Positions 4,909-56,005 of a stretch of DNA of 64,000 nt are shown in pieces. Below the pieces are notes generated by a model. It was not told the origin of the DNA and did not search any database. It saw only the letters and a program-made list of their open reading frames with translations. Each line of letters begins with the position of its first letter. The stretch's first letter is position 1. This DNA comes from Bacteroidales bacterium (GTDB lineage: Bacteria; Bacteroidota; Bacteroidia; Bacteroidales; WCHB1-69): the NCBI GenBank assembly GCA_017525505.1, contig JAFXSR010000046.1, positions 1,520-65,519 of the forward strand. Reading direction: 5' to 3'. Made by a program: the position numbers and the translations under genes.

Positions 4909-4917
4909 CAGTTTTTT

Positions 4918-4941
4918 GTTGAATTGTTGAATTGTTGATGT
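4918..4941. repeat. Short tandem word array (gttgaatt, period 8)
   Basis: The units are gttgaatt/gttgaatt/gttgatgt. The reverse-complement word aattcaac is arrayed at 28545-28574. Confidence 0.7.
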
Positions 4942-4973
4942 GTTTAATATATTTTTTCAACAATGCAAAAAAA

Positions 4974-5379
4974 GTACCGAAGGTACGATATCTCAATAAC
5001 CCCGCACGTCAGTATGGGGTCTGGGAGAGGGAGTAACATCAACTCTCGATCTGCACACATCGACAGAGCATGATGAGGCCCGTAGGGCCGAAAAGAATAC
5101 AGACAGGGGTGTAACCCCTGATACAGACAGGGGCGCAGCCCCTGGTAGAAAGGACCACATATATCATCGCGGCACGTGTTGTGTTTGCCATGATGATGTG
5201 TTATGCTTGCCGCGAAAGTGAGGGGTGATGTTACAGTGCCTCAGGATCTTGACAGAGTGAGACACCTTGGTTTTGAGTCTGACGATGTGTCGCCTCTTCG
5301 AGGCTCAGAGACATGTGTGGGCATCCTCTCACCCCACACTAACGTGCGGGGTTACTGAAATGGTGCCTCTTCGAGGCAC
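4974..5379 (+). mobile_element. MITE-like hairpin-module element, copy A
   Basis: The left end gtaccgaaggtac...tcaataaccccgcacgtcagtatggggt and the right end accccacactaacgtgcggggttactga...gtgcctcttcgaggcac are inverted repeats of each other. The element is collinear with copy B except for an extra hairpin-rich insert at about 5025-5165. Confidence 0.7.
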
Positions 5380-5409
5380 AGGCTTAGTCTTCACAAACCA
5401 ATGAAATCT

Positions 5410-8863: not shown

Positions 8864-8979
8864 AATCTTCGTGAACCAATGAGATTAATTCATCAAAATA
8901 GTCATCTACAGACATAGTATCCTCAATGATTTTGTCTTTGCTGGAAGAATCGTCTCCCTAGACATGAGGATGTCTTGGA

Positions 8980-9264
8980 GTACCGAAGGTACGACATCTC
9001 AATAACCCCGCACGTCAGTGTGGGGTATGGAATGCACAATCTAATCTAATCGCGGCATGTACTATGCATGCCCTGATGATATGTTGTGCATGCCGCGAAA
9101 GGGAGGAATGATGTTACAGGGCTTACAGGATCTTGACAGACTGTGACACCTTGGTTTTGTGTCTGATGATGTGTCGCCTCTTCGAGGCTCATAGACATGT
9201 GTGAGCATCCTTTTGCCCCACACTTACGTGCGGGGTTACTGATGTGTCGCCTCTTCGAGGCTCA
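8980..9264 (+). mobile_element. MITE-like hairpin-module element, copy B
   Basis: It has the same ends and internal order as copy A: gtaccgaaggtac, aaccccgcacgtcagtgtggggt, ...cgcgaaag..gatgttacag..ggatcttgacag..gacaccttggttttg.., gcctcttcgaggc, ccccacacttacgtgcggggttactga, gcctcttcgaggc. Confidence 0.7.
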
Positions 9265-9283
9265 GGTACAATCTTCGTGAATA

Positions 9284-11605: not shown

Positions 11606-11757
11606 GTGTCGCCTCTTCGAGGCTTAAAGGAAGTTGGGGCTTTTTCCACCCCAGACTCACGTCTGGGGTTATTGAGATAATGCCTCTTCGAGGCATGGGG
11701 ACCAAAACAAGGTTCCTTTTACCCCATACTCATATCAGAAATTCCTCTTCGAGTCAC
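11606..11757 (+). mobile_element. MITE-like hairpin-module element, partial copy C (right-end modules only)
   Basis: The sequence is gtgtcgcctcttcgaggc ... accccagactcacgtctggggttattgaga-taatgcctcttcgaggcat, followed by a degenerate second unit accccatactcat...cctcttcgagtcac. It matches the right end of copies A and B. Confidence 0.6.
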
Positions 11758-13110: not shown

Positions 13111-13114
13111 TTTT

Positions 13115-13262
13115 AGTATAAAGTATAAAGTATAAAGTTTATAGTTGACAGTTGATAATTGATAGTTGACAATTGATAATTGGTTTAGGAGGTTTAGAAA
13201 GGTTACACGGTTAGGAGGTTATTAAGTTTATGGATTATGAATTTTGAATTCTGAATTAAATT
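13115..13262. repeat. Drifting tandem word array filling a whole intergenic spacer
   Basis: The units are gtataaa x3, gtttata, gttgaca, gttgata, attgata, gttgaca, attgata, then ggtttag/gaggttt-type words, then ttatgga/ttatgaa/ttttgaa/ttctgaa. The period is mostly 7. Confidence 0.8.
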
Positions 13263-13273
13263 ACAGCAGCCTT

Positions 13274-13850: not shown

Positions 13851-14480
13851 TTAAACATTGTATTCCGCCATATCCTCCGCTGCCATCGGCAGTTCCTCCT
13901 CCACATGGATATAGCTTTTATCTTTCGGATTGAAGGTTGCGAGGTAATAATCATGAAGCTGAACCTCAACACGCAACATCGTCTGTTCCAACTGTTTGGG
14001 TTTCAACTGGCACTCCCAAAGCACAATCACCTGCCAGCCATTCTCCCGCAGAATCCGGTAATTTTCCTGATCCCGCTCCTGATTCCTCTGAATCTTTCGA
14101 ATCCAAAAATCAGTATTGCTTTGCGGAATCCTGCAACACTCAGAATTCTCAACCTTCTTTCTATCAACCTTATACGGAATTCCCTTCTCTCCCACCTTTC
14201 CAACCGCTACTCCAGAATCCGAATTCTCAACTGTCAATTGTAAACTGTCAACTGTCAACTGAACCCCGTGTCCATGCCAAAAGCACCCGTTCACAAAGAT
14301 GGCGGTGCGATACTTCCGCATCACGATATCCGGCTTCCCCGGCACCCCTTTTACACACAAGCGGTAGCGATAGCCATGTTGCCACAGCCACTGCCGCACC
14401 TTGATTTCAGGCTTGGTATTCCGGCTGCGGATATGCGACATGCAGCGGTGGCGTTGTATCGGGGTCATGATGTCAGTCAT
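13851..14480 (-). CDS. vsr: Very-short-patch repair endonuclease with an in-frame repeat-derived insertion
   Basis: SRNTKPEIKVRQWLWQHGYRYRL...GKPDIVMRKYRTAIFVNGCFWHGH ... PQSNTDFWIRKIQRNQERD...GWQVIVLWECQL is the Vsr signature. About 36-39 extra residues interrupt the CFWHGHxC segment. Confidence 0.8.
   Translation of the reverse strand: MTDIMTPIQRHRCMSHIRSRNTKPEIKVRQWLWQHGYRYRLCVKGVPGKPDIVMRKYRTAIFVNGCFWHGHGVQLTVDSLQLTVENSDSGVAVGKVGEKGIPYKVDRKKVENSECCRIPQSNTDFWIRKIQRNQERDQENYRILRENGWQVIVLWECQLKPKQLEQTMLRVEVQLHDYYLATFNPKDKSYIHVEEELPMAAEDMAEYNV
14143..14262. repeat. Repeat-vocabulary insertion inside vsr
   Basis: An 11-bp direct repeat gaattctcaac (14143-14153 and 14221-14231) bounds a 78-bp block. 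It is followed by heptamers caactgt/caattgt/aaactgt/caactgt/caactga. Confidence 0.75.
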
Positions 14481-14481
14481 A
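14441..14481. repeat. 41-bp direct repeat, copy 1 (authentic vsr 5' end)
   Basis: tgcagcggtggcgttgtatcggggtcatgatgtcagtcata. It is identical to 15833-15873 at 40 of 41 positions. Confidence 0.9.
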
Positions 14482-15720: not shown

Positions 15721-15832
15721 CGTTATTTTGATTTTCAAAAAGTCATTTTTATATTTTTTTCCACTGCATTTTCTGCTACCCAAGGTCTTTTCCCCCTGAT
15801 CTACATAGAGATTGAGATCAACCTTGCAATAA

Positions 15833-15873
15833 TGCAGCGGTGGCGTTGTATCGGGGTCATAATGTCAGTCATA
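15833..15873. repeat. 41-bp direct repeat, copy 2 (stranded vsr 5' fragment)
   Basis: tgcagcggtggcgttgtatcggggtcataatgtcagtcata. It encodes MTDIMTPIQRHRC on the minus strand, then diverges to a stop after 23 codons. Confidence 0.9.
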
Positions 15874-16563: not shown

Positions 16564-16716
16564 TCAGTTCTTGTTGAGGATGACGAGTGCGGCAATGACG
16601 CCCGGCACCCATCCAGCCAAAGTGAGCAGAAATACGATAAGTACTGACCCGCAGCCCTTGTCGATGACTGCCAGCGGCGGGAAAAAGATGGCTAATAAGA
16701 CACGAAGAAGAGACAT
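16564..16716 (-). CDS. YqaE/Pmp3-family small membrane protein (below the ORF-track cut-off)
   Basis: Hand translation gives MSLLRVLLAIFFPPLAVIDKGCGSVLIVFLLTLAGWVPGVIAALVILNKN (50 aa). PPLAV...LLT(L)LGW(I/V)PG(V)IHA-type motifs define the UPF0057/Pmp3 family. Confidence 0.7.
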   Translation of the reverse strand: MSLLRVLLAIFFPPLAVIDKGCGSVLIVFLLTLAGWVPGVIAALVILNKN

Positions 16717-16721
16717 GAAGA

Positions 16722-16973
16722 CTATTTTTTTAGGGTTTCTAATGCCCGGCAGAGCTGGTCGGGGCAGGAGGTGGCTTTATCGCCACAACGGATGCCATTC
16801 AGTATGCCAATGACATCGTCAATCTTTCGGCCTGTCACCAAACGACTGATTCCTTGCAGGTTACCATGGCAACCGCCATAAAAAACAACTTGCTGAATAA
16901 CATCATTCTCATCGACCGTCACATCGATGAACTGCGAGCAGGTTCCTTGGGTTTTGTAGAGGGTGTGTTTCAT
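16722..16973 (-). CDS. TSCPD-domain protein (TIGR03905-like)
   Basis: 83 aa. The sequence reads GTCSQFIDVTVDENDVIQQVVFYGGCHGNLQGISRLVTGRKIDDVIGILNGIRCGDKATSCPDQL, with the eponymous TSCPD motif. Confidence 0.75.
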   Translation of the reverse strand: MKHTLYKTQGTCSQFIDVTVDENDVIQQVVFYGGCHGNLQGISRLVTGRKIDDVIGILNGIRCGDKATSCPDQLCRALETLKK

Positions 16974-17929
16974 ATTTGTTCATTTTTTAGTTTTTCCACC
17001 AATTCATCGCTGATGTTATTGCCTAATTGCTGGCAAACATCCTGACTCCAGCGTTGGGCCATCTTAATAAATTGACAGTTTATAGTTGACAGTTGACAGT
17101 TATTTTTGGCGAACGTTGAATCTTCCGTTTTCAATTTACCATTTTCAATGGCAAGCTTCGCATAGATATAGCCTGCGTTGAAGTTGTCACCAGCCCCTAC
17201 CGTACTGACAGTTTCTATCGGCTGCACAGGATAAGTCTCGCAGCTCTCAGGCGTATAGACCCGTATCTGGCGCGCTCCGTCAGTCAGTATCAGCGTCTGG
17301 CAATAGCGGCTCACCCGCTCATAAATGGCATCGCCGTCGTGCAAGCCGAGAAGGTACCCAAAGTCCTCCATAGAACCACGAACCACATCAGCCAGCCGCA
17401 TGTTCTCTTCAATATTGGGCATCACGTCGGGCAGGTCGGCGATATGGTTTTTACGGAAGTTGACGTCGTAATAAAGCCAGGCACCCGCCTCGTGTGCCTT
17501 ACGAAGCAAGCCACCCACCACGGAGCGTATCACAGGGTTGATAGCGAAGAACGACCCGAACAGCACCACATCATTTTTGCTAAAAGTCGGCAGAGGGCCA
17601 TCGAGCGATACTGACGCATGGTCCTTGTAAAAGACATATTGCGCATCGTTATGCTCGTTGAGGAAAGCCAACGTGATGTGTGACTTGACATTTTCGTGGC
17701 GGCAGACGTATTCCGACGACACTCCATTCTCCTGCAGGTAATTGCAAATCAGATCTCCCACGTGGTCGCCACCTACATCTGTCACCATGACACAGTTCAT
17801 GCCTGCCCGTCCCAGCGAGACGATGCTGTTGAACGTCGAGCCCCCCGGCACAGCCTTCAGCGGCTGATCGTCCTTAAAGAGGATGTCCAATACAGTTTCT
17901 CCGATACCGATGATGCGATTTTTAGTCAT
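16970..17929 (-). CDS. PfkB-family carbohydrate kinase (fructokinase)
   Basis: IIGIGETVLDILFKDDQPLKAVPGGSTFNSIVSLGRAG...LAFLNEHNDAQYVFYKD...VSTVGAGDNFNAGYIY closely follows Bacteroides fructokinase. The C-terminal region contains a heptamer tract (NNCQLSTINCQFI). Confidence 0.8.
   Translation of the reverse strand: MTKNRIIGIGETVLDILFKDDQPLKAVPGGSTFNSIVSLGRAGMNCVMVTDVGGDHVGDLICNYLQENGVSSEYVCRHENVKSHITLAFLNEHNDAQYVFYKDHASVSLDGPLPTFSKNDVVLFGSFFAINPVIRSVVGGLLRKAHEAGAWLYYDVNFRKNHIADLPDVMPNIEENMRLADVVRGSMEDFGYLLGLHDGDAIYERVSRYCQTLILTDGARQIRVYTPESCETYPVQPIETVSTVGAGDNFNAGYIYAKLAIENGKLKTEDSTFAKNNCQLSTINCQFIKMAQRWSQDVCQQLGNNISDELVEKLKNEQI
17068..17104. repeat. Heptamer tract inside the fructokinase CDS
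   Basis: The units are attgaca/gtttata/gttgaca/gttgaca/gttattt. The same GTTGACA vocabulary occurs at 13144 and 14232. Confidence 0.75.
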
Positions 17930-19741: not shown

Positions 19742-19943
19742 ACATCATACATAATTCCATTCTCCGCTGCTATCGGCATGTATTCCTCAACATGGATGTA
19801 AGTTGCCGAGCGGTGATAAAAAGTCTTCAGCTAATAGTCCAATAGTTGGATCTCCTCCTGGCGCATCGTACACTTCATCTCTGCCGATTTCAGCTGACAC
19901 ATCCAAAGCACAATTGCCAATAATACACGAAGCAAGGACAATG
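19738..19943 (-). pseudogene. vsr 3' remnant (second, decayed copy)
   Basis: The minus-strand frame reads LAIVLWMCQLKSAEMKCTMRQEEIQLLDY*LKTFYHRSATYIHVEEYMPIAAENGIMYDV*. It aligns with the C-terminus of the intact Vsr (VIVLWECQLKPKQLEQTMLRVEVQLHDYYLATFNPKDKSYIHVEEELPMAAEDMAEYNV*). There is an in-frame TAG at 19831-19833 and no 5' half. Confidence 0.65.
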
Positions 19944-20193
19944 CTATTTAAGTTTTTCCAACGCGCGACAAAGCTGGTCAGGACAGGATGTATCCATGCT
20001 GCCGCAGCGAATACCGTTGAGTTTTTTTGATGACGTAATCTATTTTCTGTCCAACGACCAGTCTACAGATGCCTTGAAGGTTTCCGTCGCATCCGCCCAT
20101 ATAGAAAACCTGCTGTACAATGCCATCGTCATCGACGGTCACATCAATGAACTGCGAGCAGGTGGGCTGGGGTTTGGAGGGGGTGTGGGGCAT
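19944..20193 (-). pseudogene. TSCPD-domain paralogue with a frameshift in a homopolymer
   Basis: The N-terminal 50 codons parallel 16722-16973 (TCSQFIDVTVDDDGIVQQVFYMGGCDGNLQGICRLVVGQKIDYVIKK). After the A7 run (T7 on the plus strand, 20022-20028) the conserved LNGIRCGSMDTSCPDQLCRALEKLK* continues in another frame. Confidence 0.6.
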
Positions 20194-20233: not shown

Positions 20234-21340
20234 TTATCGTAATCTAATTTGTAGGTTTAATTTAAACATCAAATCTCCATTTAGATCTTTATAAACCATT
20301 GCATATTTATGCCTTGTGGTACTGGCACGTTCGAGATACGCATTTGTAAACAAATAATCTTCAAATCTATTGCGGTCATAAAAATGATAACAAACAATAT
20401 CGCCGTCATTCTTCACAACAAGATAACCTCCATTTGCATCATATCGGCCTGTCCATAGTGTGGCAGGCATCATTCCAAGCGCAGCTGAGGTAAGAAGATG
20501 CTTGGCTTTGTATGTGTAAATCTCAAGTAGGTTGTTGCCTCTAAATCTCAAAGGATTTGTTTCTGACATTGTCTCAATTAATTGGGGAAAGGCTGAAATT
20601 CCTTCATCTAATTGAACTATTAGCATTGATGCAACCAAATGCGCCATGTCTCCATCCAACATTCGTATATTACGTTCAAAAACATCATTGTCAATATGAC
20701 TGTACTGGAGTCTACCACCTTTCCTCAATATGGCGTTGTATCTTTCAATAACCTTATTGCGAGACGGATTGATTTCATTAATGCTCTCAATTTCTTCATT
20801 GGTAAGATTCACACCAACTATTTTAAAGGTGAAATTTGTTGCTTCACTTGCATTTAACAATGTAGAGTTTCCGCCAAGTTGGGATTTTATACTAAAACCC
20901 ATTTCAGAGTTGAGACGAGTACGTTTATCATGCAGAACTATTCTTATATCAGTTTTATCGGAGGATCTTGCCTTGAGTGAATAACAATAAATGGAGTGCA
21001 TAAACTCTTCAATTAATGGCACAGAAAAAGCCCCGTCGTTTTCTTTTATCTTTTTCAACAGCATTTCTGATTGACTCAAAAACACATCGGCGGGAGTCCT
21101 TAAAAGTTCCTCTCCGCTTGCTTTGAAAATAACAATCTCGCTGCCTATTGGCGAATATTTGTATTTTTCTTCTCTTTCCTGTCGAATAATGGAAACAATA
21201 GGGTAAACTAAATCCAATATCCTATTTAGATTTTGGTCACCTGCATAGACTTCTCCTTCTCCTAATAGCTTCAATAAAGTGTATATCTCACTCCATTCTC
21301 CTTTATTTCCTGTTATTGCCATATTGTTTTGGTTTATCAA
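20234..21340 (-). CDS. Type II restriction endonuclease, HpaII family
   Basis: The N-terminal TGNKGEWSEIYTLLKLLGEGEVYAGD is the signature I associate with the RE_HpaII family. It overlaps the 3' end of the upstream C5-MTase gene and is AT-rich. The start may be 21322 (MAITGNK). Confidence 0.7.
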   Translation of the reverse strand: MINQNNMAITGNKGEWSEIYTLLKLLGEGEVYAGDQNLNRILDLVYPIVSIIRQEREEKYKYSPIGSEIVIFKASGEELLRTPADVFLSQSEMLLKKIKENDGAFSVPLIEEFMHSIYCYSLKARSSDKTDIRIVLHDKRTRLNSEMGFSIKSQLGGNSTLLNASEATNFTFKIVGVNLTNEEIESINEINPSRNKVIERYNAILRKGGRLQYSHIDNDVFERNIRMLDGDMAHLVASMLIVQLDEGISAFPQLIETMSETNPLRFRGNNLLEIYTYKAKHLLTSAALGMMPATLWTGRYDANGGYLVVKNDGDIVCYHFYDRNRFEDYLFTNAYLERASTTRHKYAMVYKDLNGDLMFKLNLQIRLR

Positions 21341-22544
21341 GTTTTATTCTTTTAATGATTTGTTCAGCTGTAGCCTGAATAGCAGGAACAGCAACAGAAT
21401 TACCAAATTGCTTGTATGCAGAAGCATCAGCAACGGGTATTATAAACGAGTCAGGGAACCCTTGCAGCCTTGCCCATTCTCTCGGTGTCATTCTCCGCCA
21501 GCCATCGTGGTTGATTTCCCCTTTTATGTTAGTCACGGGTGTAAAATTAGTCAAACGATTGTCTATCACTATGTTGCGCTCACGCCCCATCCCTCCAACA
21601 ACAATAGCATTTGCTACTCCGTCATCTGAGATAATCTCATAACCGAATCCGTTGCCCTTGCTTTCGTGACGCTTTTTGTGCTCGATTAATGTTTGCTGGT
21701 ATTGAGTTGAAAGATAATACTTAGGAGAGACCTCTCTGTCTTCCCTTATATCAATGAATCGTTTGGTTTTATCTGTAGGTTCAGGATATTTAAAACTCCT
21801 TACCTTCATATCTTTACGGAAACCAACAATATAAATTCTTTCTCTATGTTGTGGAACTCCAAAGTTCATAGCATTGACAATCTCAGGATCGGGTACATAA
21901 TAATCCAAATCGTTTCGTAGCACATTCAGGATTGTGTCAAGGGTTTTTCCTTTATCATGAATCATCAAACCTTTTACGTTTTCTAAAAAGAATGCTTTGG
22001 GACGTTTTCTGCGCAATATTTCTGCCACATCGAAGAATAACGTACCTCGGGTCTCTTCAAAACCACGGCGTTTACCAGCAAGAGAGAAAGCTTGGCAAGG
22101 GAATCCTGCACACAGTATGTCAAAACCATCTGGGATATATTGTTTTGTGGATTCTTTGGTTATATCTCCAAAAGGTACTTCTCCGTAATTGGCTAAATAT
22201 GTTTTTTGAGCTTGTGCATCCCATTCCGAAGAATAAATACATTTTCCTCCCAGATTTTGCATAGCAATACGAAATCCTCCTATACCAGCAAATAAATCAA
22301 TAAATGTGAATTTAGGATTTTCTGGAGCTCGAAATGGTACAGAAAGCAACTCTGGAAATAGGTTATATTGAATGTCAGGCTCTGCTACAACATTCCGTTG
22401 CTCTTTATAATTATCATTATTTAGCAAAAACAAAGCATCTTTCTCAAAAGAAAGAGCATATTTACTATGTTTATTTTGAAGATAATGCGTAACTATTGCA
22501 GAATCATCATTCAGTGAAATATTAAATTTATTTCGCATGATCAA
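21303..22544 (-). CDS. DNA (cytosine-5)-methyltransferase
   Basis: The motifs are: I FIDLFAGIGGF, IV GFPCQAFS, VI ENVKGL, VIII QHRERIYIVGF, and IX-X REWARLQGFPDSF...GNSVAVP. Confidence 0.9.
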   Translation of the reverse strand: MIMRNKFNISLNDDSAIVTHYLQNKHSKYALSFEKDALFLLNNDNYKEQRNVVAEPDIQYNLFPELLSVPFRAPENPKFTFIDLFAGIGGFRIAMQNLGGKCIYSSEWDAQAQKTYLANYGEVPFGDITKESTKQYIPDGFDILCAGFPCQAFSLAGKRRGFEETRGTLFFDVAEILRRKRPKAFFLENVKGLMIHDKGKTLDTILNVLRNDLDYYVPDPEIVNAMNFGVPQHRERIYIVGFRKDMKVRSFKYPEPTDKTKRFIDIREDREVSPKYYLSTQYQQTLIEHKKRHESKGNGFGYEIISDDGVANAIVVGGMGRERNIVIDNRLTNFTPVTNIKGEINHDGWRRMTPREWARLQGFPDSFIIPVADASAYKQFGNSVAVPAIQATAEQIIKRIKLDKPKQYGNNRK

Positions 22545-28225: not shown

Positions 28226-28544
28226 AAATACTAAAAAACATTATTTGGAATCCATGTTTGGCATAAAAAGAACCATGATAGATGATGATGAAAGGCCAGA
28301 ATCCATTGTTGATAACTTAATCCACTCATTTAAGGATTCTTAGGTCTATTGTTAATATCTTTCTGAAAAGAGCCAATGTTCTTATTTTTCTTTGTTTTAC
28401 TTTTGCAAGCCGAATTTGAGAGACGGGGAGACATGCACTACGTGCATTCGGGGAGACGGAAAGACGAAAAAACGGTGGAACAATAACCGAATACCCGAAA
28501 GAACGAAAGTGAACGCCTTAACGAGCGTCTTAACACAGGAACAG

Positions 28545-28574
28545 ATCAACAATTCAACAAATCAACGATTCAAC
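28545..28574. repeat. Short tandem word array (caacaatt, period 8) abutting the dnaB ATG
   Basis: The units are caacaatt/caacaaat/caacgatt/caac-ATG. This is the reverse complement of the 4918 array word. Confidence 0.7.
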
Positions 28575-30152
28575 ATGGAGAATAAAACTATTACTTCTAG
28601 GAAAACTGAAAACAGACTGTCATACAATACGATTGAAAATGCTTTGGGCAACACTGGAAAGATTGTGCCTCAGGCTGTTGACATAGAGGAAGCCGTGCTG
28701 GGAGCCATGTTGATTGATGCCAACGCAGTGAGTGTAGTCATCGACTCGCTGACCTCCAACATGTTCTACCGCGAGGCCAACCAGATGATTTACAAAGCGA
28801 TTTTCGACCTTTTTACCAAGTCAGAACCCATTGACCTGCTGACGGTTACCAACAAACTGCGGAAAGAGAAACAACTGGAGTTTGTGGGAGGAGCCTCTTA
28901 TCTGGCATCGCTCACCAACCGTGTGGCCTCTTCCGCCAACATCGAATACCACGCCCGTATCGTCATGGAGAAGTTTGTGTTGCGCGAGCTGATTTCCGTG
29001 TGCAGCAACATCACCCGCGATGCTTACGACGACTCCAAAGACGTACTGGAACTGATGGACAAGGCCGAGACCGACCTGTTCAACATCATCCAGAACAACT
29101 TCAAGCGCGACAGCAAAGAACTGCGCACCGTGGTGCAGAACGCCATCCACGAGCTGCAGGAGATGAACAACAAAAGCAGCGACGAGCTGCAAGTGCGCAC
29201 CGGCATCCGCGCCCTTGACGAGAAAATCGGAGGATGGCAACGCTCCGACCTGATTATCATGGCCGCCCGTCCCGGTATGGGTAAAACCTCTTTCGTGCTG
29301 TCCATCGCCCGCAACGCCGCCCTGGACTTCAACAAGAAAGTGGCTTTCTTCTCCTTGGAAATGTCCGCCACCCAGCTGGTTCACAGACTATTCGCTATCG
29401 AGTCGGGTATCTCTGCCGAAAAAATCGCCAAAGGCAAACTCAACGAAACCGAATGGATACGCCTGATGGAAAAAATCAACGTGCTTTTCAGCTCCAATCT
29501 GATCATCGACGACACCCCTGCGCTCTCCATTTTCGACTTGCGCGCCAAATGCCGCCGTCTGAAGGCTCACAACGATATCGACTTGATTATTGTGGACTAC
29601 TTGCAGCTGATGCAGGGCAATGTGGACGGAGCCAAGGGCACTGGCAACCGCGAACAGGAAATCAGCCATATCTCCCGTTCACTCAAAGCTTTGGCCAAAG
29701 ACCTGAACGTGCCTGTCATCGCCTTGTCGCAGTTGAGCCGTGCCGTTGAAACCCGCCCCGGTGTGAAACGTCCTCAGCTGTCCGACCTTCGTGAATCCGG
29801 TTCTATCGAGCAGGATGCCGATATGGTTATGTTTATCTATCGTCCTGAATATTACAAATTTGAGGCATTTGAAGACAATACGCCTTCAGAAGGTTTGGCC
29901 GATATCATGATTGAAAAGAACCGTCACGGCTCGGGCGGCAATGTCCGTATCCGCTTCCAGAGTCAGTACACCAAGTTCACCGATGTGGACGATGTGCCTC
30001 ATTTTGTAGAAAATGGTGGGGAAGGCAGCACTTTTGTCGATCCTGCCGCCGGCATTGCCCCCAGCGCCAGCTTCAGCACCTTCAACGCCAGTTTCAACGA
30101 CGAACCCGACACCAACTTTACCGGCACCGACGACGGAGAAATGCCTTTCTAA
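28575..30152 (+). CDS. dnaB: Replicative DNA helicase DnaB
   Basis: Start set at MENKTITSRK. The N-terminus reads PQAVDIEEAVLGAMLID. Walker A is ARPGMGKTSF; other motifs are IIVDYLQLM, SRSLKALAKDLNVPVIALSQLSR and QDADMVMFIYR. It has a C-terminal extension of about 45 aa. Confidence 0.9.
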   Translation: MENKTITSRKTENRLSYNTIENALGNTGKIVPQAVDIEEAVLGAMLIDANAVSVVIDSLTSNMFYREANQMIYKAIFDLFTKSEPIDLLTVTNKLRKEKQLEFVGGASYLASLTNRVASSANIEYHARIVMEKFVLRELISVCSNITRDAYDDSKDVLELMDKAETDLFNIIQNNFKRDSKELRTVVQNAIHELQEMNNKSSDELQVRTGIRALDEKIGGWQRSDLIIMAARPGMGKTSFVLSIARNAALDFNKKVAFFSLEMSATQLVHRLFAIESGISAEKIAKGKLNETEWIRLMEKINVLFSSNLIIDDTPALSIFDLRAKCRRLKAHNDIDLIIVDYLQLMQGNVDGAKGTGNREQEISHISRSLKALAKDLNVPVIALSQLSRAVETRPGVKRPQLSDLRESGSIEQDADMVMFIYRPEYYKFEAFEDNTPSEGLADIMIEKNRHGSGGNVRIRFQSQYTKFTDVDDVPHFVENGGEGSTFVDPAAGIAPSASFSTFNASFNDEPDTNFTGTDDGEMPF

Positions 30153-30155
30153 GCT

Positions 30156-30698
30156 ATGAAAAAACTATCTATGGAAGAACTCCACCGTGTAAGCCCCGAG
30201 GAGTTCAAAAAAATCAAGAAAATACCGCTGACCGTCGTTTTAGACGACATACGCAGCATGAACAATATCGGCTCCATTTTCCGCACCTGCGACGGCTTAG
30301 CCGTAGAACAGCTATATCTTTGCGGCATCACCGCCTGCCCGCCCAACAAGGAAATCAACAAAACCGCCCTCGGCGCCACCGAAAGCGTGGAATGGCATTA
30401 TTTCGAGGATGTAGTGGAAGCCGTCAAACAACTGCAACATAGTGGCTACAAGGTTTTTATGGTAGAACAAACCGACCAGTCCATCATGCTGCAAGATCTG
30501 AAAATTCCCCAAGGACAGAAAACCGCCATCATCTTGGGAAATGAGGTGTTCGGTGTCAGCGACAAACTGCTGCCCATCGTAGATGGAGCCATCGAAATCC
30601 CCCAGTTCGGTACCAAACACTCCTTCAACGTGACCATCGCCGCGGGAATGGTGATGTGGGAGATCTTTAAACAGGTTTCAGGGGTCAGGGGTCAGTGA
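30156..30698 (+). CDS. TrmH/SpoU-family RNA 2'-O-methyltransferase
   Basis: 180 aa. LTVVLDDIRSMNNIGSIFRTCDG...ILGNEVFGVS...IEIPQFGTKHSFNVTIAAGMV are the SpoU motifs. Confidence 0.8.
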   Translation: MKKLSMEELHRVSPEEFKKIKKIPLTVVLDDIRSMNNIGSIFRTCDGLAVEQLYLCGITACPPNKEINKTALGATESVEWHYFEDVVEAVKQLQHSGYKVFMVEQTDQSIMLQDLKIPQGQKTAIILGNEVFGVSDKLLPIVDGAIEIPQFGTKHSFNVTIAAGMVMWEIFKQVSGVRGQ

Positions 30699-30757
30699 TT
30701 AGGGGTTAGTGATTAGGGGTTAGGTATCAGGGATTAAGGATTCAAAATTCAAAGACT
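30679..30757. repeat. Tandem word array overlapping the trmH stop
   Basis: The units are caggggt x2, then agtgattaggggtt x2 (period 14), aggtatcagggatt, aaggatt and caaaatt. The first units encode the last codons VSGVRGQ*. Confidence 0.8.
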
Positions 30758-30832
30758 CACCTGATGCGAAGCATCACTCACCTCGAGTGCGTAGCACGAG
30801 ACTCACCCGTATTAATTACACATTAAAAAAAC

Positions 30833-30863
30833 TTTCAGCTTTCAGTTTTCAGTTTTCAACTTC
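30833..30863. repeat. Heptamer array (tttcagy) overlapping the thioesterase stop
   Basis: The units are tttcagc/tttcagt/tttcagt/tttcaac. On the minus strand this encodes ...KLKTEN*. It is the reverse complement of the gaaaact arrays at 48629 and 51425. Confidence 0.8.
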
Positions 30864-31255: not shown

Positions 31256-31366
31256 TTTGAATTCTGAATTACTATTGTTGCGATATTTTTTTAATTTAGA
31301 AATTTAATCTATTGACATACAATAAGATATAATTATTCTTTAATTTTTTGATTTGAAATAATAGTT

Positions 31367-31524
31367 GGATATTGCAAACTAATCCGTTTCGCAGCGGGTT
31401 TATACAGTCCTTCGGTGCACATTACATTCGCGCTGCGAAGAGATATACCACATTTTCCATACCCCACACTGCGGCCTACGGCCTGATGTGGGTTACTGAG
31501 AGACTGTCTCTTCGAGACATATAC
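31367..31524 (-). mobile_element. MITE-like hairpin-module element, copy D (subfamily 2, inverted relative to E)
   Basis: The reverse complement aligns along its whole length with 39436-39596. It contains ccccacactgcggcctacggcctgatgtgggttactga (a TIR-type hairpin with a nested ggcc..ggcc hairpin) and gtctcttcgagac. Confidence 0.7.
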
Positions 31525-31600
31525 CTACAAGGCAGTCTGCTACTCTTCACTGCAAGATACCTGCTCAGGTCATGGCCTCGGAGAGGTCACCTCTCTGTAT

Positions 31601-31690
31601 CCCCTAATCACCATATCCTAATCACTCCTGCCTTCCACCTTCCACCTTTTACCTTCTACCTTCCACCTGACCACTGATCCCTTACCACTG
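31601..31690. repeat. Tandem word array downstream of cobB
   Basis: The sequence is cccctaatcac / cctaatcact, then ccttcca x2, ccttttaccttctaccttccacc, then ccactga/cccttaccact. These are reverse-complement vocabulary of the 30700 and 48581 arrays. Confidence 0.75.
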
Positions 31691-31694
31691 GCAT

Positions 31695-32407: not shown

Positions 32408-32510
32408 GGATTCAAAGTTCAAAATTCAGAATTCAAAATTCATTGGCACATCATATCCTTGGCTAATTTCACTGGCTAATAAACTAATTTGCTAATTTGC
32501 TAATTATTAC
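32408..32510. repeat. Tandem word arrays in the cobB / EF-G divergent spacer
   Basis: The units are ttcaaag/ttcaaaa/ttcagaa/ttcaaaa/ttcattg, then ggctaatttcac/tggctaataaac/taatttgc/taatttgc/taattatt. Confidence 0.8.
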
Positions 32511-32511
32511 G

Positions 32512-32519
32512 TATCTTTG
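32512..32519 (+). promoter_or_regulatory. Bacteroidota -7 promoter box (TATCTTTG) upstream of the EF-G paralogue
   Basis: tatctttg lies 50 nt upstream of the ATG at 32569. Confidence 0.5.
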
Positions 32520-32568
32520 CAAAATCAAATTAAAATAGTCAACTAATTAATAATCAATAAAATAAATA

Positions 32569-39330: not shown

Positions 39331-39596
39331 AACCCCATACTCGCTGCGCTTCATATGGGGTTACAAGAGAGGAGGCCTCTTCGAGGCCGTGACCAGAACA
39401 AGTGTCTTGCAGCAAAGTGTATCAGACTGTCTTACGGATATATATATCGAAGAGACATTCTCTCAGCAACCCCACATAAGGCCGTAGGCCGAAGTGTGGG
39501 GTATGGAAAACGCGGTGTACCTCTTCGCAGTACGAATTTAATGTGCACCGAAGAACTGAATAAACCCGCTGCGAAATGGAGTAGTTTGCAATATCC
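39331..39596 (+). mobile_element. MITE-like hairpin-module element, copy E (composite; 39436-39596 is the inverted partner of D)
   Basis: The sequence is aaccccatactcgctgcgcttcatatggggtt + ggcctcttcgaggcc, then tcgaagagac...ctcagcaaccccacataaggccgtaggccgaagtgtggggtatgg...gtagtttgcaatatcc. Confidence 0.7.
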
Positions 39597-39664
39597 CACT
39601 ATCATTTCAAATTCCAAAGACTCCCCTGATGCGAAGCATCTCTCACATGAGCGCAATGGAACTC

Positions 39665-39730
39665 CACTAACCCCTAATCACTAACCCCTAAAAATCAGCA
39701 CATTAGCACATTAACTAATTTGCTAATTAA
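39665..39730. repeat. Tandem word array overlapping the stop of the PPAD-like gene
   Basis: The units are cactaacccctaat x2 (the reverse complement of the 30700 words), gcacatta x2, and ctaatttgctaatt. The last unit supplies the codons ...KIN* on the minus strand. Confidence 0.75.
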
Positions 39731-47617: not shown

Positions 47618-47625
47618 TATCTTTG
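47618..47625 (+). promoter_or_regulatory. Bacteroidota -7 promoter box (TATCTTTG)
   Basis: tatctttg lies 23 nt upstream of the ATG at 47648. Confidence 0.5.
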
Positions 47626-47796: not shown

Positions 47797-48573
47797 ATGG
47801 TGTCCGGTGAAAAAAAGACAGCTCCCATCGTCAAAGCAAGTCTGCTTGCAGGCGTGCTGATGGTTCTTGTTTTGGTCTCACGGGCACAAGACGTAGCCGA
47901 CTCCACCGAGCATGTGGTCACCGCCAAGGAATGGAATTTCAATCTCGAAATCAACACTTCGGGAGCAGGGCTGTGGTTTCAGTACGGATGGACACCGGAC
48001 TACTACAACAAGCACTTTGTGGAAGTGGGCGGTGTGTACAACCGGCATCCGAAGGCAGTGCGGGTCAAAAGTGCCCTTTACAACGGCAGCACCTCATTCT
48101 GTTACGGGAAACTATGCGACCTCTTTCTGTTGCGGGCAGGCTACGGCTACCAACGCACCATTCACCACAAGCCCTATTGGGGCGGGGTCAGCATCCGCTA
48201 CTCGCTGTCGGCTGGTCTTTCGCTGGGACTGGTGTTCCCCACCTATCTGCGAGTGGTTGATGACTACGGCTTTGTTAAAGTGCAAAGGTATGATCCTGAT
48301 GAGATTGACGCATCAGAAATCATAGGTCATGCTCCATTCTGGACCAACTTGTCCCATATCAGCTATCCACATCCGGGATTTTATGGCAAAACGGGCTTTG
48401 CGTTCGACTTCAGCAAAAAAGACCAAACCATCCACGCACTGGAAATTGGCATTTGCATCGACATGATTTTCCCTTACGTGCAACAGATGGCCTTCAACAA
48501 AGCCAAACCCTTCTACCTCGCTGCCTACCTTTCGTATGACGTGGGCAAAAAGAAGAAGATTTATGAGAGATGA
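47797..48573 (+). CDS. Hypothetical secreted / outer-membrane protein
   Basis: 258 aa with a signal peptide (…VLVLVSRAQD). The sequence is rich in G/Y/aromatic alternating segments suggestive of a small beta-barrel. Confidence 0.45.
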   Translation: MVSGEKKTAPIVKASLLAGVLMVLVLVSRAQDVADSTEHVVTAKEWNFNLEINTSGAGLWFQYGWTPDYYNKHFVEVGGVYNRHPKAVRVKSALYNGSTSFCYGKLCDLFLLRAGYGYQRTIHHKPYWGGVSIRYSLSAGLSLGLVFPTYLRVVDDYGFVKVQRYDPDEIDASEIIGHAPFWTNLSHISYPHPGFYGKTGFAFDFSKKDQTIHALEIGICIDMIFPYVQQMAFNKAKPFYLAAYLSYDVGKKKKIYER

Positions 48574-48580
48574 TGATATT

Positions 48581-48793
48581 AGGTGGAAAGTAGAAAGTGG
48601 GAGGTGGGAGAATTTAAGAATTAAGAACTGAAAACTGAAAACTGAAAACTGAAAGTTCTTTTTAATGTGCCAATTAACAATGTGCTAATGTGCCAATTAA
48701 ACGGAAAACGGAAAGTTGTCAAAAGATATGTGATAAAAAACAAATCAACAAATAAACAAATAAACAAATCAACAATTAAACAAATCAACAACA
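48581..48793. repeat. Longest drifting tandem word array (periods 7 and 8), filling the whole spacer up to the glyA ATG
   Basis: The units are aggtgga/aagtaga/aagtggg/aggtggg/agaattt/aagaatt/aagaact/gaaaact x3/gaaagtt, then ...aatgtgccaattaac..., acggaaa x2, then ...aacaaatc/aacaaata x2/aacaaatc/aacaatta/aacaaatc. Confidence 0.85.
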
Positions 48794-50074
48794 ATGACAA
48801 GAGACACACAAATTTTTGATCTCATTCAGAAAGAAAGAATCCGTCAGACGAACGGTATTGAATTAATCGCTTCAGAAAACTTTGTAAGCGATCAAGTTAT
48901 GGAAGCCATGGGTTCTGTGATGACCAACAAATACGCCGAAGGCTATCCTGGAAAACGTTACTATGGCGGTTGCCAGATTGTGGACCAGAGCGAAACCATC
49001 GCCATTGAGAGAGCCAAAGAGCTCTATGGCGCATGCTGGGCCAACGTACAGCCTCACAGTGGTGCCCAGGCCAACATGGCCGTTTTCTTGGCTTGCCTCA
49101 ACAGTGGCGACACTTTCATGGGCATGGACCTGAACCACGGCGGTCACCTCTCACACGGCAGCCCCGTCAACTTCAGCGGTATCAACTACAAAGTGGTGGG
49201 TTACCAGGTGAAAGAAGAGACTGGCACAGTAGATTACGAAGACATGGAGAAGAAAGCGCTCGAGTTCCGTCCGAAACTGATCATCGGCGGTGGTTCAGCA
49301 TATAGCCGTGACTGGGATTGGGCTAAGATGCGCGAGATTGCCGACAAAATCGGTGCCATCCTGATGGGCGACATCAGCCACCCCAGCGGACTTATCGCCA
49401 AAGGTTACCTGAACAATGCCTTGAAATACTGCCATATCGTCACTACCACCACCCACAAAACCCTCCGTGGACCTCGTGGCGGTCTGATTCTGATGGGCCA
49501 GGATTTCGACAATCCTTGGGGCAAAACCACCCCGAAGGGTGAAATCAAGAAGATGAGTGCCCTGCTCGACAGCGCCGTGTTCCCCGGCACACAGGGTGGT
49601 CCCCTCGAACATGTGATCGCCGCCAAGGCAGTGGCTTTCGGTGAAGCATTGACCGACGACTACGACCGCTACATCCAGCAGGTGATGAAAAACGCCAAGA
49701 CCATGTGCGCCGCCTTCATCGACAAGGGTTACAAGGTTATCAGCAACGGTACCGACAACCACCTGATGCTCATCGACCTCCGCACCAAATTCCCCGAAAT
49801 GACCGGTAAGGAAGCTGAGAACGCATTGGTATCCGCCGACATCACCGTGAACAAGAACATGGTTCCTTTCGATAGCCGTAGCGCATTCAAGACCAGCGGT
49901 TTGCGTGTGGGTACTCCCGCTATCACCACCCGTGGCCTCAAAGAAAACGAAATGGGCGAGATCGTTGAACTGATCGACGACGTATTGAGCCATCTCAACG
50001 ACACCACCGTGGTTGACAAGGTAAGAGCCAAAGTCAACAGCATGATGTCCAACCGTCCTTTGTTCGCTTGGTAA
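48794..50074 (+). CDS. glyA: Serine hydroxymethyltransferase
   Basis: [26 protein letters not shown], and [14 protein letters not shown] (PLP lysine). Confidence 0.92.
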
Positions 50075-51423: not shown

Positions 51424-51532
51424 AAAAACTGAAAACTGAAAGTTAACAATTAAGGGGGAGATGGTGTGAAGATTATTGGATTATTAGATGATGGATTTAG
51501 GATTAAACATTAAACTCTAAACATTAAACAAA
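51424..51532. repeat. Tandem word array filling the sigma54-activator / lptE spacer
   Basis: The units are aaaaact/gaaaact/gaaagtt, then ...gattattg/gattatta/gatgatg/gatttag/gattaaa/cattaaa/ctctaaa/cattaaa. Confidence 0.8.
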
Positions 51533-51538
51533 TACCTC

Positions 51539-55972: not shown

Positions 55973-56005
55973 AATTTGAATTCTGAATTCTGAATTCTAA
56001 ATTTC
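55973..56005. repeat. Heptamer array (gaattct) in a convergent spacer
   Basis: aatttgaattctgaattctgaattctaaatttc. Confidence 0.8.

Follow-up and report, generated by a model that had tools for sequence, protein, structure and literature searches.

What builds the spacer in front of glyA in this genome, and why do its short words return at other gene boundaries nearby? The question was raised by a first-pass annotation of a 64,000-nt stretch from an uncultured rumen/gut Bacteroidales bacterium (GenBank assembly GCA_017525505.1, contig JAFXSR010000046.1; the whole stretch is hereafter the window), which had described the glyA spacer as a succession of 7- to 8-nt words that repeat in tandem while mutating stepwise. 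Here, our analysis suggests that this spacer and its counterparts are probably hypermutable heptamer/octamer simple-sequence arrays, which change by slippage and by copying between arrays, with selection acting as a filter. The window contig (ena:ERZ27256870:k141_13936) encodes a GlyA that is 99% identical to that of the yak-rumen metagenome-assembled genome (MAG) RGIG10078 and 97% identical to that of RUG14804. Its gene content includes Por_Secre_tail and PorZ, and the nearest genomes are rumen/gut Bacteroidales MAGs.

The spacer itself spans 220 nt (48574-48793), from the stop of a 258-aa open reading frame (ORF) to the glyA ATG, and consists mostly of 7-nt and 8-nt tandem words kept in register:

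47797-48573, plus strand: upstream ORF of 258 aa, with no Pfam family; the array begins directly after its stop (TGA TGA .. TAG)
48581-48657, plus strand: 11 heptamers in a single register, namely AGGTGGA, AAGTAGA, AAGTGGG, AGGTGGG, AGAATTT, AAGAATT, AAGAACT, three copies of GAAAACT, and GAAAGTT
48664-48697, plus strand: module of AATGTGCC/AATGTGCT and CAATTAA (the AATGTGCY/CAATTAA block), weakly periodic
48699-48714, plus strand: two copies of ACGGAAA, weakly periodic
48738-48793, plus strand: seven AACAAATM octamers, G-free and A/C-rich, running up to the glyA ATG
48794-50074, plus strand: glyA (serine hydroxymethyltransferase, SHMT)

Identity at a lag of 7 nt reached 0.71 over positions 48581-48660, where the 99th percentile of shuffles was 0.49, and identity at a lag of 8 nt reached 0.81 over positions 48738-48793 (99th percentile, 0.70). 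In the same lag-identity test against shuffles, the middle block (48661-48737) was not significantly periodic as a whole. The initial description of the entire spacer as tandem words thus holds for 48581-48657 and 48738-48793 but not for the block between them as a whole. The words themselves lie where they had been placed, as both the spacer sequence and Tandem Repeats Finder (TRF) agree. The mean Hamming distance is 1.8 between neighboring units and climbs smoothly to about 6 for units at least seven apart, so the described drift in register is real. A scan of the spacer for TAnnTTTG -7 boxes found none, and glyA is therefore probably co-transcribed from a box at 47618. At the other end of the spacer (48571-48587), the upstream ORF terminates in TGA TGA TAT TAG, with three in-frame stops within four codons.

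Such arrays are by no means confined to glyA. With a strict tandem-repeat score, the window contains seven tracts of period 7, three of period 8 and five of period 14; all other periods between 3 and 15 are empty, and local shuffles give about zero tracts. The predicted excess of period 7-8 tracts is thereby established for the window. Coding and intergenic DNA were separated by the collection's gene calls, used in place of greedy ORF calls, which assign 10.0% of the window to intergenic DNA. Period-7/8 tracts cover 7.4% of these intergenic bases versus 0.20% of coding bases, and the only coding period-7 tracts are those in vsr and pfkB together with overlaps at gene ends. TRF recovered the tracts of the glyA spacer and all 12 further loci that had been proposed:

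4916-4948, minus strand: AACAATTC octamer on the reverse strand, just upstream of the rbfA TATCTTTG -7 box
13111-13273, minus strand: intercistronic spacer from a macro-domain gene to a 433-aa ORF, about 60% lag-7 periodic, with AGTATAA, AGTTGAC/AATTGAT, GGTTTAGGAG and GAATTCT
14187-14261, minus strand: heptamer array within the vsr ORF, the strict-tract part of a 129-nt in-frame insertion
17072-17101, minus strand: AACTGTC tract of the heptamer array within the pfkB ORF
28540-28575, plus strand: AACAAATC/AACAATTC octamers that end at the dnaB start codon
30678-30745, plus strand: TCAGGGG/TTAGGGG/TTAGTGA/TTCAAAA heptamers, G-tract rich, overlapping the stop of a SpoU methylase gene
30832-30862, minus strand: GAAAACT/GAAAGCT heptamers overlapping the stop of a 4HBT thioesterase gene
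31605-31694, plus strand: 13 in-register heptamers (CCCCTAA .. CCTTCCA .. CCACTGA) between a MITE-like element (see below) and the stop of a SIR2 gene
32410-32560, no strand: divergent promoter region with ATTCAAA/ATTCAGA heptamers, CTAATTTG octamers and AATAATC heptamers
39664-39713, minus strand: CCCCTAA/CCACTAA heptamers and AGCACATT octamers downstream of the stop of a PAD_porph gene, the site of a 14-nt strain polymorphism
51424-51538, plus strand: intercistronic spacer from a sigma-54 activator gene to lptE, with two GAAAACT and a GAAAGTT, GATTATTG, and ATTAAAC words
55973-56003, no strand: convergent spacer with AATTCTG heptamers that reach to within 5 nt of the stop of an aminotransferase gene

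All 12 had been presented as gene-boundary loci carrying the words in either orientation. Both orientations do occur, but the arrays at 14187-14261 and 17072-17101 lie inside the vsr and pfkB ORFs, and the former had been assigned the coordinate 14143. The further statement that arrays build whole spacers is true of three or four spacers that are mostly array, while only about 9-11 of the 34 spacers of at least 30 nt carry any. Arrays were found on both strands and in co-directional, convergent and divergent spacers alike, at no fixed distance from start or stop codons in the window, the leader octamers excepted. Only AACAAWTM octamers abut start codons (those of glyA and dnaB); the distance from GAAAACT arrays to the next downstream ATG is 140 nt or 95 nt, except where they stand at a 3' end in a convergent spacer. 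The TCAGGGG/TTAGGGG units of the G-tract-rich stretch at 30678-30732, which begins in the last codons of SpoU, contain four G-tracts, three of them GGGG and one GGG.

The loci share a vocabulary, as had been proposed, and the sharing is not random. On either strand, 12 of the 105 pairs of array loci have a 12-mer in common, compared with 0.27 pairs for shuffled arrays. When the columns of each array are permuted instead, which leaves its tandem structure and composition intact, 0.97 pairs are expected, and none of 500 permutations reached 12. Thus, GAAAACT occurs at 48626 and 51425 and reversed at 30832; AACAAWTC at 48738 and 28540 and reversed at 4916; AATGTGCT at 48680 and reversed at 39697; AGGTGGA at 48581 and reversed (recorded as CCTTCCA) at 31631; AGTTGAC at 13141 and 17072 and reversed at 14227; and TTAGGGG at 30678 and reversed at 39664. 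Some shared strings extend over several words: 30825-30858 matches 48629-48662 (34 nt, 94%, flank included), 13136-13174 matches 14222-14260 (39 nt, 85%), 14222-14251 matches 17072-17101 (30 nt, 87%) and 30741-30781 matches 39606-39646 (41 nt, 90%), and an exact string of at least 17 nt is common to the 51424-51538 spacer and 48633-48658. Between 13% and 83% of each array locus is covered by exact 15-17-mers, whose partners are always other arrays; for random windows the figure is 0.6-1.8%. These lengths were used for the coverage test because chance coverage at k = 12 is about 13% and uninformative. A hairpin module, GACTCMCCTGATGCGAAGCATC, and its adjoining TTCAAAW heptamers are likewise common to 30741-30796 and 39606-39646 (90%), and the module is tandemly duplicated with a period of 21 at 30755-30796.

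Beyond the single genome, the rate of identical words is 3.7% for pairs of tracts within a genome, 0.9% between genomes and 0.26% for random composition-matched words, so that identical words are four times commoner within than between genomes. Of the 54 period-7 words, 15 are present in at least two genomes, at non-orthologous sites. Since these within-genome, between-genome and random rates differ, the vocabulary is partly genome-specific and partly clade-wide.

To follow the same spacer among relatives, we drew on a genome scan with GlyA, which gave 80 loci, and a metagenome scan anchored on the 5' end of glyA, which gave eight more (related loci are numbered with the prefix L). Independent assemblies of other samples reproduce the arrays base for base: the glyA and lptE spacers recur unchanged in L002, the arrays between 4916 and 17101 in L085-L087, and those between 28540 and 39713 in L089. 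L001 and L002 represent the same strain and agree in their arrays. Another comparison is with L003, whose flanks are 98.2-98.7% identical to those of the window, whose glyA is 99.8% identical (three mismatches in 1281 nt) and whose GlyA protein is identical. Its glyA spacer can be aligned to that of the window only over the last ~45 nt. The remainder is made of other words (ACAGGTT, TTCAAAA, CTTAAAGAC and AACCTCC) and resembles the spacer of L004, a locus with about 88% identity in its flanks. The window spacer is not an inverted form of the L003/L004 allele, as reverse-strand alignments score at the level of shuffles. A divergent recombination tract as the origin of the L003 allele found no support either, given that the mismatches are not clustered beside the spacer and that glyA is mismatched at only 3 of 1281 nt.

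Further alleles extend this series. In the L005-type spacers (L005, L093, L095 and L098) the copy number differs in every sub-array, and ATTCACA/ATTCATA variants are interspersed. L096 has only its 3' half in common with L003. L092 and L097 use yet other words, with the stop codon inside the first unit (gagTGAt cagtgat cagtggt). L094 and L099 retain both genes around a 49-nt spacer that is array-free, and more distant relatives have another upstream neighbor and a canonical TAtATTTG box about 40 nt 5' of glyA, with no arrays there. The glyA-spacer alleles therefore extend from forms without an array up to about 240 nt, and the AACAAATM octamer array is the sole spacer part retained in L003, L004, L005 and L092-L098. 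Because the orthologous spacer of L094 and L099 is array-free and the distant relatives lack arrays, the arrays are dispensable; they are also extremely labile, and only the A/C-rich leader is conserved.

The same lability is seen at finer scale. Pairwise alignments of strains with at least 99.3% identity, ~166 kb in total, showed only two real indel events, and one of them is a 14-nt (two-unit, 2 x 7) insertion located exactly in the 39665 array (L088, L090). In L091, a contig with 85% identity here, the segment 30680-30760 contains three insertions, of 7, 7 and 8 nt. The first-pass annotation had proposed to look for expansion, contraction or presence/absence in orthologous spacers; differences in copy number are seen in the 39665 indel and the L005-type alleles, and absence in L094/L099. 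Where arrays overlap gene ends, their indels alter C-terminal tails: in several alleles, L092 and L096 among them, the first heptamer unit includes the stop codon, and the SpoU protein, 175 aa long in the window, has 182 aa in L091. In one strain (L087) a 5-nt deletion at the equivalent of window position 18275 breaks a DUF1016/YhcG nuclease gene into ORFs of 334 and 93 aa.

Two arrays have grown inside proteins. The vsr gene (13851-14480, minus strand) carries a 43-aa (129-nt) in-frame insertion at residues 74-116, between the CFWHGH and CC(R/K)IP motifs; E. coli Vsr aligns to window Vsr residues 5-73 and 117-163, and the insertion site is presumably the zinc-site loop of the E. coli Vsr structure. 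The insertion parses in register as agttgac agttgac agtttac aattgac agttgag ... aggtggg agagaag. In orthologs 75-95% identical, this loop measures 30, 51, 108 or 129 nt (~10 to 43+ aa); the 30-nt form reads ggggttc aattcac aattgaa aattcgg ag, and the 51-nt form has three more units. Units that would bring an in-frame TGA are mutated (agtttac, aattcgg), which indicates that the vsr ORF is under selection.

The pfkB-family kinase gene (16970-17929, minus strand) has a 7-residue-periodic insertion after its GAGD motif, where the variable segment is 105 nt in the window versus 48 nt in the array-free baseline orthologs of 300 aa. Most orthologs are of this 300-aa form, reading ...AKMLGMDDPTQRIAM..., with no periodicity and no related sequence, and the proteins of one subclade measure 310, 312, 317, 319, 326 and 333 aa. 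The extra DNA consists of in-register heptamers (aatggaa aattgaa agttgaa aattcaa ... aattctc/aactgtc) built of vocabulary words (AATTGAA/AATGGAA, AACTGTC), and the peptide KLKTE is translated AAACTGA. The length classes of the vsr loop and of pfkB differ mostly by 21-nt (7-aa) steps, and both in-frame arrays are kept as ORFs across many samples. The vsr and pfkB inserts draw on the intergenic vocabulary, and nothing in the coding sequence around them is ancestral to them.

In 1.3 Mb of relatives, the strict score gave 71 tracts of period 7, 13 of period 8, 7 of period 9 and 36 of period 11, with only about 0-3 at periods 5, 6, 10 and 12. Period 11 dominates in relatives with 55-62% GC, and periods 7 and 8 in genomes with about 45-50% GC. 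No strict tract was found in nine low-GC loci (L040-L044 and L047-L050, including three 'Ca. Onthomorpha' MAGs), and overall period-7 tracts are about twice as numerous in the closer half of the loci as in the more distant half. In the high-GC relatives (56-62% GC), arrays of the 11-nt unit join their own reverse complement in a perfect ~130-nt hairpin (L019 712-849 and 7807-7949; L023 9797-9864 and 17090-17187); in L019 the entire palindrome occurs twice, flanks included, and forms a dispersed palindromic element of tandem repeats.

The word GAAAACT also appears in viral sequence. The IMG/VR contigs L141, L122, L113 (67% GC) and L152 (45% GC) have 5-9 (GAAAACT)n arrays each, in sense orientation in short inter-ORF gaps, so that an AT-rich word is repeated in 67%-GC DNA. 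In L113 these arrays form inverted pairs, and in L152 ACTGAAA alternates with ACTGATA (= TAACTGA). Stretch counts over IMG/VR were 49 for (GAAAACT)3 and 15 for (AGTTGAC)3. Since scrambled composition-matched heptamers also occur, in 8 stretches for (GACAATA)3 and 29 for (AAGCATA)3, the global excess of vocabulary words is modest, and what is distinctive is the many arrays of the same word in a single contig. The L141 arrays fill intercistronic gaps; the apparent start of ORFs right after them is partly an artifact because the arrays carry stops in all frames.

How, then, might such arrays arise and persist? Under the reading that we consider probable, in-register replication slippage, the enzymatic cause that we infer, would add and remove whole units, and point mutations in single units would be re-amplified, giving blocks of identical units between stepwise variants and hence the drift. 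Short stretches would also be copied between arrays, perhaps by ectopic gene conversion or template switching, which would seed new sites and keep the vocabulary genome-wide. Copying is suggested because ~165 nt of spacer could not be rewritten by point mutation at less than 2% divergence, and because vocabulary words sit in ORFs whose orthologs have no related pre-existing sequence. The original argument that independent slippage alone should not yield a shared vocabulary seems fair to us on similar grounds, namely the strings shared over several words and flank and the ORF arrays without local ancestry. Selection, for its part, would only prune, so that arrays stay where they are harmless, in spacers of any orientation and in surface loops of proteins, and in such loops only multiples of 21 nt without in-frame stops would survive. 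Most arrays would then be tolerated filler and not signals. The A/C-rich, G-free AACAAWTM array at start codons may be different, co-opted as an unstructured translation leader in a host without Shine-Dalgarno use.

Several observations weigh against this reading. Slippage alone does not explain the sharp period spectrum (71 tracts at 7 and 36 at 11, with ~0-3 at 5, 6, 10 and 12), nor the 15 of 54 words that recur across species at non-orthologous sites. Words are alike even across phyla, as AAACTGA and TAACTGA are one base apart and mixed in L152, and TTCAAAA is also a Nostoc word. The ~165-nt replacement at less than 2% flank divergence goes beyond point mutation plus slippage and would need copying or allelic recombination. 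Finally, the AT-rich, sense-oriented (GAAAACT)n that fills most intercistronic gaps in 67%-GC IMG/VR contigs looks selected.

One alternative is that the words are functional binding arrays, multivalent mRNA or DNA sites for a ribosomal or regulatory protein (S1, a Csp-like protein or some other heptamer binder) that tunes how the flanking genes are translated or transcribed. The position of AACAAWTM directly at the glyA and dnaB start codons and its retention as the only conserved segment of the glyA spacer would suit such a role, as would a vocabulary conserved between species and partly across phyla and the sense-oriented (GAAAACT)n in gaps just 5' of ORFs in L141, L122 and L152; roles of this kind have been argued for in PMC4679880 and bioRxiv 10.1101/2022.06.06.494920. 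However, the non-leader words are wholly exchanged between strains whose glyA is 99.8% identical, an array-free ortholog exists, and the placement of arrays is varied: either strand, convergent spacers downstream of both genes, sites 5' of promoters, and protein loops, where a regulatory site would make no sense. In the window they also keep no fixed distance to starts or stops, apart from the leader octamers. Protein-binding arrays, one of the explanations first offered, are weakened accordingly by the full allele turnover at less than 2% flank divergence, and we regard them as possible but unlikely.

A more speculative proposal is a sequence-specific system that operates across phyla, in which the vocabulary would be no by-product of slippage and a conserved factor with a 7-nt footprint (8 or 11 in some lineages), be it a protein that binds nucleic acid or an activity of replication or repair, would make or recognize WAACTGA, TTCAAAA, ARTTGAC and GGGGTYA. 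It stays under consideration because of the sharp 7/8/11 spectrum, the words shared at non-orthologous sites, the vocabulary words in pfkB and vsr, and the AAACTGA arrays in 67%-GC viral contigs, where that word is compositionally improbable; we nevertheless hold it doubtful. If it were true, arrays would spread between loci and genomes, phages included, writing into tolerant DNA, and the length of spacers, their stops in three frames and even new protein loops with a 7-residue period would follow from it.

A further possibility is a dedicated writing or mobile system, either a templated repeat-adding enzyme or a small non-autonomous element that inserts heptamer cassettes. Such a system could account for identical multi-word strings at unrelated loci, some with flank, for vocabulary arrays in pfkB and vsr where orthologs have no insert or a short one, and for the replacement of an entire spacer at very low flank divergence. 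The lineage-specific unit length (7/8 at ~45-50% GC, 11 at 55-62% GC) and the two copies of the L019 palindromic element of ~130 nt, with its period-11 arrays, would also fit. Against it, the period-7/8 arrays showed neither terminal inverted repeats nor target-site duplications nor defined ends, the perfect-copy blocks within the spacer are multi-centered and not polarized to one growing end, the window gene calls link no reverse transcriptase, primase-polymerase or transposase to the arrays, and the observed polymorphisms are the single- and double-unit indels that slippage predicts. The templated repeat-adding activity suggested at first thus gains no support, and of the dispersed low-complexity mobile sequence suggested beside it, copying between arrays survives but a defined mobile element does not; we consider a writing or mobile system quite improbable. 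An assembly or sequencing artifact, or chance AT-rich low complexity, has a negligible chance of being the answer: the contig (k141_13936) does come from a short-read metagenome assembly, in which tandem repeats are prone to collapse or mis-joining, but the same arrays were assembled independently from other samples and by another pipeline, they are shorter than the assembler's k = 141 and have internal variants, shuffles give ~0 tracts while the window has periods 7, 8 and 14 only, and the vsr/pfkB arrays remain ORFs in many samples.

Several known kinds of element were also set aside. Neither Rfam 15 at gathering score nor ARAGORN found anything in the whole window, and the arrays are thus not a catalogued RNA. 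A role as structured RNA or terminator was rejected, as three array spacers fold more weakly than their shuffles (z = +1.37, +0.24 and +0.94). For three co-directional array spacers a promoter role was rejected as well, the TAnnTTTG scan having found no -7 box inside them. Clustered regularly interspaced short palindromic repeats (CRISPR) had been discounted from the start, rightly: the units are 7-8 nt and contiguous, without spacers, whereas CRISPR repeats measure ~24-48 nt and alternate with unique spacers of about the same size. An element of the miniature inverted-repeat transposable element (MITE) or repetitive extragenic palindromic (REP) type is equally unsuitable, given the poor folding of the array spacers and the lack of inverted arms or defined ends around them.

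A distinct, second family of spacer-filling repeats does consist of MITE-like elements, which are ~250 nt long with hairpin modules (CCCCACAC..GTGGGGTTACTGA; GCCTCTTCGAGGC) and number at least five copies or fragments in the 64 kb: 31351-31604 and 39357-39612 (inverted, 84-89%), 4973-5392, 8979-9276 and 11647-11695. None of them matches Rfam at gathering score. Arrays lie near both of the paired copies, on non-equivalent sides, and no consistent link between arrays and MITE-like elements was found.

The arrays belong to a class that has been recognized for decades. In cyanobacteria heptanucleotide arrays were described as early as 1990, and other phyla followed in 2007-2015. The cyanobacterial STRR heptamers are said to go back to work by Mazel in 1990; their words are STRR1 CCCCAGT, STRR2 TTGGTCA and STRR3 CAACAGT, and they form small heptamer sets that occupy many intergenic loci and vary between strains. 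The arrays of the window resemble them, and those of Nostoc, in that a few heptamer words recur in tandem at many scattered intergenic loci and vary between strains, but no tandem dimer of STRR1-3 was found in the window or in 100+ related loci, the host is a member of the Bacteroidales and not a heterocystous cyanobacterium, and octamers occur here and undecamers in relatives. In Nostoc, arrays of TTCAAAA and GACYAAT lie near start codons, and deletion of a heptamer array had modest effects on a reporter (bioRxiv 10.1101/2022.06.06.494920). TTCAAAA arrays are also found in the present clade (window 30740, L003, L010, L092 and L098).

A close published counterpart is found in the TAACTGA arrays that MacGregor 2015 (PMC4679880) reported for Beggiatoaceae, for Cyanobacteria and for five Bacteroidetes, which show 7-nt-step indels, three-frame stops, overlap with upstream stop codons and occasional ORF-internal copies, and for which a functional role has been argued. 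The same work describes mixed heptamer assemblages in Gramella, Aequorivita and Elizabethkingia and notes that, for Gramella and Aequorivita, the spacers of close relatives are shorter and have no obvious repeat sets. Our arrays share with TAACTGA repeats the tandem 7-nt units, the mostly intergenic placement at many loci per genome, the 7-nt-increment indels, the stop codons in three frames, the overlap with the upstream gene's stop and the occasional location in an ORF. Moreover, the window's commonest word, GAAAACT (= AAACTGA), differs from TAACTGA by one base, and both are mixed in L152. Exact tandem copies of TAACTGA are, however, absent from the window, where AAACTGA/GAAAACT stands at 48626, 51425 and 30832, and were found once in a relative (L058). 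In BOGUAY one favored word is repeated in 2-6 copies, with forward arrays a few nt 5' of start codons, whereas the window spacers comprise many words that drift into each other and only the octamer leader is so placed. The rumen Bacteroidales clade is not among the hosts in PMC4679880.

Other classes overlap in part. Rehm 2015 (PMC4692102) described GGGNATC/GGGGAYT arrays with 'extensive length and sequence variation' among close relatives. GGGAATC and GGGGATT are not tandem in the window. The G-quadruplex type of that study calls for at least four units of a G-tract heptamer, directly after a stop on the sense strand or upstream on the antisense strand; the 30678-30732 stretch has three GGGG tracts and a single GGG tract, and its words differ from the published ones. 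As summarized in PMC4679880, Mrazek, Guo and Shah (2007) defined long simple-sequence repeats (SSRs) as tandem 1-11-nt units longer than expected, with units that are not multiples of 3 excluded from coding DNA, and found that among those of 5-11 nt heptamers are the commonest in prokaryotes, with a sporadic distribution over the phylogeny; polymerase slippage, according to the accounts in PMC4679880 and PMC4692102, has been proposed as the cause of the heptamer excess. The window tracts are alike in exceeding shuffles, in being depleted in coding DNA and in varying by whole units between close relatives. The long-SSR survey treated loci independently, and the window adds a within-genome vocabulary, multi-word sharing and coding insertions in 21-nt steps.

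Contingency-locus SSRs share slippage-driven copy-number change in or beside genes, but their units are usually 1-5 nt and switch surface or restriction genes on and off, whereas the window arrays flank housekeeping genes (glyA, dnaB, lptE, rbfA) and its coding arrays vary only in frame-preserving 21-nt steps. Eukaryotic minisatellites likewise have interspersed variant units, fast allele turnover relative to their flanks, and change by slippage and gene conversion; the units in the window are much shorter, in a prokaryotic genome with no meiotic recombination.

Taken together, these comparisons place the arrays in the general heptanucleotide-repeat class, while membership by a specific word fails. 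The first-pass view, which did not recognize them as a described class, does not stand, as tandem heptanucleotide arrays have been described (PMC4679880, PMC4692102, bioRxiv 10.1101/2022.06.06.494920). A catalogued family gave a divided answer: Rfam 15 returned no match and the known words (TAACTGA, STRR1-3, GGGAATC) are not tandem in the window, but the general heptamer class is matched. New with respect to the cited literature are the host clade, the quantified vocabulary within and between genomes, the spectrum of periods (7, 8 and 11), the series of alleles that runs from no array to full replacement, and the two enzyme loops that grow by 21-nt steps.

To a class so long recognized, this clade contributes a natural experiment, with hundreds of metagenome assemblies and many alleles of the same spacer, which makes the rate of array turnover, copying between arrays and effects on expression testable questions. 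In vsr and pfkB, vocabulary words can be followed as they grow in 21-nt steps into new loops of housekeeping enzymes under purifying selection. In practice, arrays inflate intergenic distances and create spurious ORF extensions and variable C-termini, and they are likely break points in short-read assembly as well as useful markers for strain typing.

Some minor observations concern the neighborhood of the two coding arrays. At a distance of 6 kb from vsr, 20234-22544 encodes an HpaII-type methylase paired with a restriction enzyme. A 42-nt direct repeat, 98% identical, links 14440-14481 to 15832-15873; the latter copy, between ICMT and RlaP, repeats the vsr 5' end as a stray duplicate. The gene order in L103 is ICMT-vsr-NUDIX, and the RlaP/NUDIX block of the window appears rearranged. 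Close to pfkB, a TSCPD-domain gene is present as two small inverted paralogs, 16688-16967 and 19913-20187, which lie 3 kb apart and have diverged to 69%.

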